From assembly GCF_000332275.1 (NCBI RefSeq), contig NZ_CM001776.1:2761737-2793736 (forward strand): a DNA stretch of 32,000 nucleotides, in the 5' to 3' direction. This document shows, in pieces, positions 1 to 4,485 of this stretch (within the stretch, counting starts at the first letter, position 1; the number at the start of each line of letters is the position of its first letter). The stretch comes from Synechococcus sp. PCC 7336 (lineage in GTDB: Bacteria; Cyanobacteriota; Cyanobacteriia; Thermostichales; PCC-7336). The translations under genes were made by a program, and so were the position numbers. The notes under the pieces were generated by a model. It searched no databases. It saw only the letters and a program-made list of their open reading frames with translations, and had not been told where the DNA came from.

Positions 1-1253
1 AGCTAGAAAAAGCATTGATTTCTACTAAAATTGCTATCCTACAAAATGGCACACTGCTGACCGGTCTCACAGTTACCGAGTGGGAGTCAAGTACCCATGA
101 CATTCAAAAAACGCTTGAATTCATTAAAATGAGGCTAGCCCATCTTGACTTCCCCAAAGAGGCTGATTGGAGACTAGAGCAGATTTCCGAGCTAGACAAT
201 CCAGAAACCGTTGAAAATTTATCTGCATATTACCTAAGCCGTGTCATCAACCGTGCCCGCAACTGGATTCAGGGCCAACGTAAAGACTTATTCAAAAACC
301 AAACTGTACGCTGGAGCATTAATCTTGGAGTACCGGTAGAGTATTGTGATTCTCCTGCATTGGAGAGATTTCAGCGAGTATTATCCCTAGCATGGTTGTT
401 ATCTAATACACCATCTACTGAAGAGTCATTGACTATATCCTCTTTAAATCTACTAGGAACATACCTGCGCCAATGGATGAAAGATAATGTCACGAATGAT
501 GAATTGGACTGTATGACTACTCCTGAAATATCAGCAGCTGTCTGGTCTTTTCTCAGCTCTCGTCAGGCAAGGGAAAAATTCTATACATTCTTCGACTTTG
601 GAGATGGTACTCTAGATGGCGCTGCCTTTAGGTTTTGGCGAGAAAACGAAGGTGATTCACTAAGAGTTGATTTTTATTTTGGCCAGGTTCGTCCTTTAGG
701 AGTAACAGCTTTTATTCAGCAGACTGCCTCGGAATACGAGACTTCTACCGACAAAATTTATCAGGCTCTTTTTGAGGTGGGATTGGCAGCAGGTGATTGG
801 CTATCTTCCGTAATAGAAACGAGTGTAACGCGGCGAAGTGTTCAAAAGCTCATAGCTTCGGTCGTTACAAATGGTATGAGTAAGCATAAAAACAATCGTG
901 GCATCTTATCTAAAAATGAATTAGGCAATAACCTAGAAGTTTTTTTAGGGGGTGGCGGCGGGCAGAATCCTTTCTTTCGAAACATGGTTCAGGCAACCTA
1001 CAAAGACTTCCAGCACGATAGAGCAGGAATTCCCCAGTATCAAATTAAGCAAATTCCTGTCCCGAATACCTTATCAATGAATGGCTTAGACGCTGATGAC
1101 TTTCATCGCTTTGCCGTTGCCTATGGTCTTTCTATACCCACTTGGGAAGGACCTGAAATCCGTCTTCCCAGTCAAGTCGAGGCAAATTATACTCTTACCC
1201 CTAAGGAGTTAAATCAAGTAACACCATACGAAGATACGAAAGATTTAACGTAA
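1..1253 (+). CDS. Hsp70/actin-fold (ASKHA) ATPase-like protein, nucleotide-binding domain only; 5' end probably upstream of the window
   Basis: The frame is open from nt 3 to the left edge; the ORF track starts it at a TTG at 15. Motifs occur in Hsp70 order: VRWSINLGVPVEY (cf. VITVPAYF), TTPEISAAVWSF (cf. NEPTAAALAY, ~nt 521-556), FFDFGDGTLDGAAF (cf. DLGGGTFD phosphate-2, ~nt 591-630), VFLGGGGGQNPF (cf. LVGGSTRIP, ~nt 941-975) and HRFAVAYGLS (cf. DEAVAxGAA, ~nt 1101-1130). No phosphate-1 DxGTT motif is visible, consistent with truncation by the window edge. There is no substrate-binding domain. Confidence 0.6.
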   Translation, partial: LEKALISTKIAILQNGTLLTGLTVTEWESSTHDIQKTLEFIKMRLAHLDFPKEADWRLEQISELDNPETVENLSAYYLSRVINRARNWIQGQRKDLFKNQTVRWSINLGVPVEYCDSPALERFQRVLSLAWLLSNTPSTEESLTISSLNLLGTYLRQWMKDNVTNDELDCMTTPEISAAVWSFLSSRQAREKFYTFFDFGDGTLDGAAFRFWRENEGDSLRVDFYFGQVRPLGVTAFIQQTASEYETSTDKIYQALFEVGLAAGDWLSSVIETSVTRRSVQKLIASVVTNGMSKHKNNRGILSKNELGNNLEVFLGGGGGQNPFFRNMVQATYKDFQHDRAGIPQYQIKQIPVPNTLSMNGLDADDFHRFAVAYGLSIPTWEGPEIRLPSQVEANYTLTPKELNQVTPYEDTKDLT

Positions 1254-1326
1254 GGAGATCTAATTTCTAATTCTCCTACTTGAGTAAAAGCAATTTTTGC
1301 CTGAGGTTGACTCATATTTCATAGCA

Positions 1327-4300: not shown

Positions 4301-4485
4301 TAGAAGATCGCATTCAACGATTTAAGCAAGCTGGCAAGACCCAGATTATTCCAGCCACAGAAGGCCAGTTGAGAAAAGTAAATCGAGAGCTGGAAGTCAA
4401 GCTCAAGTCTATTCAAGAGAAGCGTGAGGGTATCGCCTTCGAGCAAGTTCAATTAGCTTCAGGCGTGATTTTTGTCGAACCGTAA
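1327..4485 (+). CDS. SNF2-family (SF2) DEAH helicase/translocase with beta-rich N-terminal region and ~350-aa unassigned C-terminal region
   Basis: The ORF is open from TTG 1297; the first ATG is at 1327. SNF2/SF2 motifs present: [14 protein letters not shown] (Walker A, ~nt 1741), [10 protein letters not shown] (DEAH, nt 2110-2121), LLLTATPIQ (motif III), [14 protein letters not shown] and [23 protein letters not shown] (motifs V-VI, ~nt 3190-3255). It lies on the same strand as the upstream ATPase-like gene, 43-73 nt downstream, and shares its low GC. Confidence 0.85.
   Translation: [1052 protein letters not shown]

Follow-up and report, generated by a model that had tools for sequence, protein, structure and literature searches.

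SNF2 helicases recur in the anti-phage systems DISARM, Zorya, Hma, Dpd and ietHAS, and the role of the motor itself in these systems is poorly understood. In class 1 DISARM the SNF2-like helicase is DrmD (Ofir et al. 2018; 10.1101/2021.12.28.474362) and a further component, DrmC, is dispensable (10.1101/2021.12.28.474362); DrmD-like helicases have been recruited as modules both in class 1 DISARM (10.1101/2021.12.28.474362) and in ietHAS (PMC13069673). The Hma system consists of an SNF2-nuclease (HmaA), a methylase (HmaB) and an ATPase (HmaC) (PMC11232893, 10.1101/2024.01.29.577857). Hsp70-type ATPases have been predicted in the CoCoNuT and GTPase-centric conflict systems, where they keep a substrate-binding domain or join McrB GTPases, tubulin, GrpE or DnaJ (PMC11090510, PMC7159879), and the Walker-type motifs of the CoCoNuT protein CnuD have been described as degenerate (PMC11090510). 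The present analysis concerns a 32,000-nucleotide (nt) stretch of the genome of Synechococcus sp. PCC 7336 (contig NZ_CM001776.1, positions 2,761,737 to 2,793,736; hereafter the window), whose left end holds an autonomous, horizontally mobile module of two ATPases. Protein A is an Hsp70-like (ASKHA) ATPase and protein B is an SNF2 motor that resembles both DrmD and RapA (HepA), the RNA-polymerase-associated Swi2/Snf2 ATPase of E. coli. No pairing of an SNF2 protein with an Hsp70-like or other ASKHA protein was found in the literature searched, which leaves out most subscription journals; the two-gene module is previously unannotated and undescribed in that literature, and may have been described elsewhere.

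The two genes lie in the same direction on the + strand. The ASKHA gene is open from the left edge of the window, where its last 416 codons occupy positions 1-1253 (frame from nt 3, TAA at 1251-1253), and this open reading frame (ORF1) matches P0001, a 723-residue hypothetical protein of the same organism, with 100% identity over its C-terminal 416 residues. The first 307 codons are supplied by a public contig (contig L001) that encodes the exact product of the second gene (ORF2) and carries the window 2.5 kb further left; they encode a hydrophobic hairpin (residues ~14-49), a coiled coil (~55-228) and a linker, as well as the phosphate-1 motif GIDFGTGFTK. After an intergenic spacer at 1254-1326, the gene for the DrmD/RapA-like SNF2 ATPase runs from 1327 to 4485 and encodes 1052 residues from the ATG at 1327, a product identical to P0121. 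The spacer measures 73 nt to this ATG, which is the start chosen by gene callers, and 43 nt to an upstream TTG at 1297. Initiation at that TTG would yield 1062 residues; an exact-sequence look-up for this longer form was empty, and it was set aside in favor of the called start.

The composition of the pair is foreign to its host. GC content is 0.422 in ORF1 and 0.425 in ORF2, compared with 0.553-0.554 in stretches of backbone. The HIP1 sequence GCGATCGC is present in 50 copies in the window (0.85 expected from shuffles), and the first of these lies at 4664; positions 1-4663 contain none, compared with 10.4 expected from a backbone density of 1 per 450 nt (Poisson P(0) = 3e-5). Composition profiles delimit an unstranded low-GC island at 1-5400 (GC 0.40-0.45 versus 0.55 in the backbone) that is HIP1-poor, the copy at 4664 being its sole site. 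The left edge of the island is located ~950 nt outside the window, and besides the two-gene cassette the island holds what is left of a decayed toxin-antitoxin module. Within the ASKHA gene the composition is that of a mosaic. The off-window 5' 600 nt (L001 1600-2200), which encode the hairpin and the first part of the coiled coil, are intermediate (GC ~0.49) and contain two HIP1 sites, both of which encode Ala-Ile-Ala; the rest of the gene has a GC content of 0.42 and no HIP1.

An earlier, sequence-only reading of the window had described two co-directional genes 43-73 nt apart, depending on the start codon, with an AT-rich composition foreign to the host and no HIP1 copy in either gene, and each of these points holds within the window. 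The same is true of its account of the proteins, in which the first carries Hsp70-type nucleotide-binding motifs without a substrate-binding domain and the second is a complete SNF2 DEAH helicase with extra N- and C-terminal regions; all of the motifs that it named are present, and the helicase has intact Pfam domains and motifs. Two of the checks that it called for, recovery of the N-terminus of the first protein by leftward extension and a structural search for an ASKHA fold, gave the 723-residue product described above and, as follows, support for an Hsp70 nucleotide-binding domain.

According to its predicted structure protein A has an Hsp70-like fold, yet by sequence it stands outside the Hsp70 family. 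More specifically, no Pfam, NCBIfam or PADLOC family matches it at E <= 0.1, including Pfam HSP70; PADLOC-DB 2.0.0 holds no model for the ASKHA protein (0 families at the same threshold), and a profile search of the sequences in PDB returned coiled-coil noise only. In the AlphaFold2 model, computed with 79 homologues, a compact domain at residues 270-700 is predicted with a local distance difference test score (pLDDT) above 90. A Foldseek comparison with PDB places the nucleotide-binding domains of DnaK/Hsp70 at the top (E = 2e-10, probability 1.00, identity 13-16%, target-normalised TM-score 0.5-0.59), with ParM ranked behind them (E = 8e-9). Residues D277, K349, E482, D505, T510 and G624-626 are invariant in 79 ASKHA sequences, and the first five of these are equated with D8, K70, E171, D194 and T199 of DnaK by motif reading rather than by computed superposition. 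In the window, the codon of K349 lies at 126-128 (+) within the motif IKMRLA, an invariant column that corresponds to the catalytic K70 of DnaK (IKRLIG), and that of E482 lies at 525-527 (+) within TPEISAAV, the counterpart of NEPTAAA. The phosphate-2 motif FDFGDGTLDG (591-620, +) contains the invariant residues D505, G507, G509 and T510, and the adenosine-binding glycine motif GGGGG (948-962, +) contains the invariant glycines. A further Hsp70-type motif, FHRFAVAYGLS, is found close to the C-terminus. Because its catalytic residues are invariant, protein A is expected, as judged from these alignments, to be an active ATPase. The chain ends ~30 residues past the nucleotide-binding domain and thus has no substrate-binding domain.

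The N-terminal part of protein A is of a different nature. Two hydrophobic helices at residues 15-29 and 33-48 (Kyte-Doolittle 2.1 and 1.75) are the only strongly hydrophobic segments of the protein, and this hairpin is followed by predicted long helices at ~38-225 that are rich in L, Q, E and R, a coiled coil of ~180 residues, and then by a disordered linker that leads to the compact domain. Hairpin and coiled coil would probably tether the long form of the protein, to which the PCC 7336 copy belongs, to the cytoplasmic membrane. The ASKHA family comprises 576 representatives (clusters at 50% identity) at E <= 1e-30 in an exhaustive profile search; at looser thresholds the coiled coil probably inflates the number.

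Protein B is a complete SNF2 ATPase. It matches the Pfam families PF00176 SNF2-rel_dom (80.6 bits, cut-off 24.9) and PF00271 Helicase_C (69.5 bits, cut-off 23.5), and the motifs GLGKT, DEAH, TATP and QRxGRxxR are invariant or nearly so among 55 homologues. Motif I (Walker A) GLGKT, encoded at 1750-1764 (+), is invariant in this set, and motif II DEAH (2110-2121, +) and motif VI QRIGRLDR (3223-3246, +) are conserved in it. The protein aligns almost end to end with the PADLOC model of DrmD, PDLC02623 (1015.6 bits, positions 2-1014 of 1040), and for this reason PADLOC would tag it as DrmD. It also matches the NCBIfam model DISARM_DrmD (NF038317) over positions 39-991 of 1021, at a score of 466 bits that is below the cut-off of 610, and the NCBIfam RapA equivalog NF003426 at 154 bits (cut-off 576). 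The NCBI names listed for close relatives are "SNF2-related protein" or those of generic helicases, and none is DrmD.

The predicted fold of protein B is RapA-like over the whole chain. The AlphaFold2 model (pLDDT 79) matches full-length RapA (6bog_A) in Foldseek with E = 3e-34 over 1079 columns at 18% identity, and the next matches, to eukaryotic remodellers, are at 1e-16; the query-normalised TM-score is 0.43-0.54 across RapA entries. A profile search of the sequences in PDB likewise places RapA first (1e-42). At the N-terminus the model contains a small beta-barrel at residues 22-67 (1390-1527, +; DSSP strands 22-25, 28-42, 45-53 and 56-61) that may be Tudor/SH3-like and is placed as is the N-terminal domain of RapA. 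The C-terminal region of the model, residues 703-1052 (3433-4482, +), opens with a 48-residue helix (703-750), continues with an alpha/beta domain (757-930) and a coiled-coil hairpin (941-1034), and closes with a terminal strand; the DrmD models of both PADLOC and NCBIfam extend over this region, and no Pfam domain does. Neither the Pfam and PADLOC searches nor the AlphaFold2 model revealed a nuclease, phospholipase D (PLD) or methylase domain in the protein.

The distribution of the two genes shows them to be a pair. Among 185,579 species, each represented by one genome, a scan revealed 129 relatives of the ASKHA protein, patchily distributed among Cyanobacteria, Alphaproteobacteria and Gammaproteobacteria, and 79 loci were retrieved. 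A DrmD-like SNF2 match directly adjoins the ASKHA gene in 75 of these 79 and is full-length wherever the contig permits; in the reverse direction, an ASKHA gene adjoins two of three sampled SNF2 homologues. Co-occurrence as neighbors, which the sequence-only reading had set out as a check, is therefore found in three bacterial classes and in two gene orders. The ASKHA gene precedes the SNF2 gene in 31 of the 59 complete pairs and follows it in the other 28, and this order corresponds without exception to the architecture of the ASKHA protein. Long forms, with hairpin and coiled coil (540-1070 residues by maximal ORF, the length of the coiled coil varying widely), are encoded upstream of the SNF2 gene, and short forms, which have neither (445-600 residues), are encoded downstream. 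The 31 long-form loci belong to Leptolyngbya-, Nodosilinea- and Phormidesmis-type cyanobacteria; the hosts of the 28 short-form loci are Nostocales, Geminocystis, Spirulina, Pseudanabaena, Rhizobiales, Rhodobacterales, Caulobacterales, Micavibrio and Arenicellales. Where the SNF2 gene comes first, the two frames often overlap by 4-8 nt, an approximate figure, as ORF boundaries in the related loci are those of maximal ORFs.

The two proteins have also co-evolved. Their pairwise identities are correlated with r = 0.96, a value that 0 of 999 Mantel permutations reach. All-against-all clustering of 2788 ORFs from 80 loci revealed no third conserved gene, the other recurring clusters being antisense shadows of the ASKHA and SNF2 genes. 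The earlier suggestion that the operon might continue upstream is not upheld: beyond the 723-codon ASKHA gene lie a fragment of an ATP-binding cassette (ABC) transporter ATPase gene and an ABC-3 permease gene with HIP1 sites and a GC content of 0.51-0.57, and because the composition of these genes is host-like, the operon stops at the ASKHA gene. A divergent version of the pair is found on conjugative plasmids of Aminobacter and Sphingobium, with an SNF2 identity of 32-34% and ASKHA proteins that are recognised by hhalign with probabilities of 99.6% and 97.3%. In all likelihood, the ASKHA and SNF2 proteins constitute a functional two-protein unit.

Several lines of evidence show the pair to be mobile. 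Its GC content is below that of the flanks in 46 of 58 loci (mean -3.2 points), and in HIP1-rich hosts the density of HIP1 is 0.60 per kb in the pair versus 1.05 per kb in the flanks; the copy in PCC 7336 is among the most foreign-looking by composition. Copies are present on plasmids as well as on chromosomes, the latter being the majority. The flanking genes are mostly housekeeping genes and vary by locus, and because they differ between loci the distribution fits a small cassette that inserts at many sites. In some genomes the neighborhood includes defense or mobility genes. HmaB and HmaC are encoded directly upstream of the pair and PDC-S68 directly downstream in Aminobacter and Mesorhizobium, and the adjacency to HmaB/HmaC is limited to these two loci (L055 and L058). 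Elsewhere SspH/SspA, Upx, a type IIG restriction-modification enzyme and DpdE/ZorD-like helicases are encoded nearby. On plasmid pAA03 the pair lies within an island that holds Hachiman, restriction endonucleases and AbiEii; on a Leptolyngbya plasmid it is situated ~7 kb downstream of cas1d and cas2; on pCHL69-1 it occurs amid toxin-antitoxin and integrase genes, and on Sphingobium pSF1 beside genes for a relaxase, MobC, ParAB and SSB.

Two neighborhoods have features of their own. On the Leptolyngbya sp. BL0902 plasmid (NZ_CP046159.1, locus L081) the ~7 kb between cas2 and the ASKHA gene (1050-8013) are without annotated genes and are presumably a type I-D CRISPR array. In Rhizobium/Sinorhizobium (L062 11404-17856, also L064 and L066) the pair is followed by an ORF of 2150 codons that joins a PDC-S68-like region (residues 9-1071) to an HKD plus SNF2 region similar to C3a139 (residues 1240-2143), and in Aminobacter/Mesorhizobium the same position is taken by a PDC-S68 protein of 1275 residues alone.

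A role in defense or in conflict between replicons, directed at phage or plasmid DNA, is favored by a small margin as the function of the pair. The sequence-only reading had proposed a mobile two-gene conflict system; the pairing and the mobility are borne out by the loci, and the conflict function stays conditional, as defense genes flank only a minority of them. A possible mechanism is one in which the two ATPases form a complex that acts as one unit. The SNF2 motor would be the effector, a double-stranded DNA translocase that loads on foreign DNA or on the protein-DNA complexes there, and its ATP-driven translocation would dislodge or stall polymerases and other machines bound to DNA, in the way that RapA acts on RNA polymerase. 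Hsp70s couple nucleotide state to partner binding, and for that reason the Hsp70-like ATPase is cast as a nucleotide-gated switch or sensor that would release the motor from an inactive state only once a trigger has bound. In long-form proteins, hairpin and coiled coil would place the motor at the membrane, the point of entry of foreign DNA, an arrangement reminiscent of the ZorAB tail with ZorD. As the pair contains no nuclease or modification enzyme, interference is proposed to be non-nucleolytic or to rely on host nucleases. This specific scheme of switch and motor is tentative, and as a whole it is somewhat unlikely to be correct in each of its parts.

A number of observations weigh against a defense function or against elements of this scheme. 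No nuclease, toxin or methylase domain can be recognised in either protein, so that the discrimination of self from non-self and the killing or blocking step are unaccounted for. The short forms have no hairpin or coiled coil, and a membrane tether would therefore be an add-on rather than part of the core. The nearest neighbors of the pair are mostly housekeeping genes (AcrB, ThiC, FBPase, transketolase). Convincing matches to defense families were obtained for roughly 12-15 of 192 neighbor clusters, in a scan by Pfam and PADLOC that gives counts per family only, and because these counts are without a matched control the association of the pair with defense genes is suggestive only. The pair was not found in 50,697 phage records or in 2.9 million viral contigs (IMG/VR), and is thus not carried by prophages, unlike many defense systems. 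The partnership itself is not absolute, as no ASKHA gene lies within 6 kb of the gene for the SNF2 orthologue P0205 (57% identical), a locus that may mark the loss of the ASKHA partner. Finally, the predicted RapA-like fold of protein B would fit a role in transcription equally well. As a separate observation, the P0205 loci (L088 5775-5975, and L089) have, upstream, a host gene that looks like fibrillin and two tandem-repeat tracts, (GGCAGAGA)n and (GCTGATA)n.

The last of these points leads to the alternative that the pair is an accessory factor of transcription or other DNA transactions, in which the SNF2 protein would recycle RNA polymerase or stalled complexes under stress with the Hsp70-like protein as a chaperone-like cofactor. 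The nearest structural match of the SNF2 model is full-length RapA, well ahead of the next (E = 3e-34 vs 1e-16), RapA is also the closest solved sequence (1e-42), and both the housekeeping nature of most chromosomal neighbors and the absence of an effector domain from the pair are what such a factor would lead one to expect. In family models, however, the protein scores only 154 bits as RapA (cut-off 576) and 466 bits as DISARM_DrmD, and a patchy spread over 129 of 185,579 species together with a foreign composition is ill-suited to a core transcription factor, as are copies on plasmids and in defense islands. This explanation is considered unlikely. As far as we know, RapA acts by itself with RNA polymerase, and no protein of the ASKHA type accompanies it.

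The plasmid copies invite a second alternative, namely that the pair serves mobile elements through plasmid establishment, counter-defense or an actin-like positioning of DNA of the ParM type. Copies on conjugative or mobilizable plasmids, among them the pSF1 copy beside relaxase, MobC, ParAB and SSB genes, and the appearance of ParM filaments in the structural search with the ASKHA domain (E = 8e-9) are consistent with it. Most copies are nevertheless chromosomal, among housekeeping genes and with no plasmid functions near them; no ParR-like adaptor or third conserved gene accompanies the pair, Hsp70 nucleotide-binding domains outrank ParM, and the invariant partner is an SNF2 motor of 1050 residues. 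We know of no ParM system that uses such a motor, and service to mobile elements is regarded as quite improbable. The DrmD likeness of protein B, on the other hand, might mean that its gene is an orphan remnant of class 1 DISARM, left after the loss of drmA, drmB, drmC and drmMI and next to an unrelated gene. The full-length match to PDLC02623 (1015.6 bits) and the coverage of positions 39-991 of the 1021 in NF038317 would be explained in this way, and the score of 466 bits, below the cut-off of 610 for that family, would not. Neither the window, L001 nor the 79 loci contain conserved DrmA, DrmB, DrmC or DrmMI, the ASKHA gene adjoins the SNF2 gene in 75 of the 79 and co-evolves with it, and since both ATPase sites are intact there is no sign of decay. 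A DISARM remnant is therefore exceedingly improbable, and is in practice refuted by the synteny data and the intact active sites. A mobile two-ATPase module with a plausible role in defense or conflict is the reading retained here.

The immediate surroundings of the cassette hold further features. At 4796-5290 on the - strand, a three-frame translation and small ORFs called in L001 reveal a decayed type II toxin-antitoxin remnant, in which a RelE/ParE (Gp49-like) toxin, broken into fragments that lie in different frames, is followed by an antitoxin of the XRE type with a helix-turn-helix, broken by a frameshift (5108-4992 and 4960-4796); these family labels are a reading of peptide sequences and not the result of a hidden Markov model search. 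A perfect 17-nt tandem duplication of TTCTAATGGGCCAAAAA, in two copies at 5391-5424 (L001 7909-7942; no strand assigned), lies exactly where the island ends on the right; it overlaps the stop codon of the neighboring alpha/beta-hydrolase gene and may be the footprint of an insertion or excision event. A scan of the island edges found no direct repeats flanking the island and no insertion scars of the tRNA type. A scan for promoters and terminators was uninformative, such sites being no more frequent than in shuffled sequence.

The window contains other features that are distinct from the cassette. A second low-GC island (GC 0.38) at 12392-15554, in a region free of HIP1 between 10618 and 15555, includes a C5-cytosine DNA methyltransferase (12392-13411; PADLOC MTase_II/DruM-like), a 585-residue ABC-type ATPase that best matches HEC-04 and then AriA and OLD-type models (Pfam AAA_15/AAA_21), and an ORF of 111 residues; it is probably a separate defense locus. 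Just to the left of this island, at 10538-11490, an antitoxin similar to TacA (Pfam TacA1) overlaps an ORF with a weak match to GNAT acetyltransferases, and the two look like a toxin-antitoxin pair of the TacAT type. A DUF3800 protein is encoded at 16287-17162; the patch that contains it is again low in GC (0.43-0.47) and lies between this second island and dnaE.

The cassette brings a DrmD-type motor together with a single partner and with no methylase or nuclease, and could thus reveal what such a motor does alone. Annotation pipelines miss the ASKHA family and would call its neighbor an orphan "DrmD", because no Pfam, NCBIfam or PADLOC model of the family exists. The pairing of an SNF2 motor with an actin-fold ATPase is otherwise a hallmark of eukaryotic chromatin remodellers, and should the two proteins prove to be a complex, theirs would be the first bacterial pairing of an SNF2 motor with an ATPase of the actin/Hsp70 fold known to the authors. 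The defenses of cyanobacteria have been the subject of few experiments, and the cassette provides a further candidate for an immune gene pair in these organisms.

In comparison with described systems, the module recalls DISARM in its motor. Protein B resembles DrmD over its full length, including the N- and C-terminal regions beyond the SNF2 core. It scores below the NCBI equivalog cut-off of DrmD as noted above, and its constant partner is an Hsp70-like ATPase. No DrmA, DrmB (DUF1998), DrmC (PLD) or DrmMI was detected in the window or in L001, and none is conserved across the 79 loci; the genes that flank the cassette are those of the ABC transporter and the alpha/beta hydrolase, and the only other ORFs of at least 700 residues in the window encode DnaE and an amino-acid permease. 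No N6-adenine methylase lies beside the SNF2 gene, the sole methylase of the window being the C5-cytosine enzyme of the separate second island (12392-13411). The view in the sequence-only reading that the pair falls outside the named systems stands with respect to DISARM, Hma and Zorya, and has to be modified for the SNF2 protein, which is not unclassified in that it matches PDLC02623.

Two other helicase systems share features with the pair. In Aminobacter/Mesorhizobium the pair directly follows hmaB-hmaC, a known hotspot for inserted defense genes; unlike HmaA, however, protein B is fitted only partly by the HmaA model (177 bits), and HmaB and HmaC are found neither in the window nor in nearly all of the other loci. 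The pair was considered as one of the candidates embedded in Hma, HEC-01 to HEC-09, and this was rejected, as these lack it. Like Zorya, with its ZorAB coiled-coil tail and ZorD, the long form combines a predicted membrane anchor, a long coiled coil and an SNF2 motor. In contrast to Zorya, there is no ZorA, ZorB or ZorC nearby and no nuclease domain, the short forms are without the anchor, and the ZorD model matches protein B in the helicase lobe only (62 bits).

With RapA, protein B is predicted to share the N-terminal barrel, the two-lobed ATPase and the C-terminal domain, although it is only 18% identical and is below the equivalog cut-off (154 vs 576). Protein A shares with Hsp70/DnaK the predicted nucleotide-binding fold and the catalytic set of Asp, Lys, Glu, Asp and Thr, and differs in having no substrate-binding domain, no linked DnaJ or GrpE gene and no match at the sequence level. 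The use of an Hsp70-type ATPase as an accessory subunit recalls CnuD/CnuCD in the McrBC systems of the CoCoNuT type (PMC11090510) and the GTPase-centric systems (PMC7159879), while the invariant catalytic residues of protein A and its SNF2 partner set it apart from CnuD.

The combination of the two proteins has an analogy among eukaryotes. Although the bacterial ASKHA domain is nearer to Hsp70 than to actin and no HSA domain was identified, the pair resembles INO80, SWR1 and BAF/RSC in that an SNF2 motor appears to be matched with an actin-fold (ASKHA) ATPase, and Sth1-Arp7-Arp9 is among the structural matches of the SNF2 model. It is conceivable, and at present distinctly improbable, that a bacterial complex of this kind represents a prokaryotic counterpart, either an analogue or a distant antecedent, of the SNF2-HSA/actin-Arp modules, and that it would confer a nuclease-free immunity by clearing or stalling machines on invading DNA, tethered to the membrane by a coiled-coil stalk in some cyanobacteria. 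Seen against these systems, the module can be placed as a new variant among helicase-centred candidate defense systems, in which a motor of the DrmD type is joined by an ATPase with an Hsp70-like fold.

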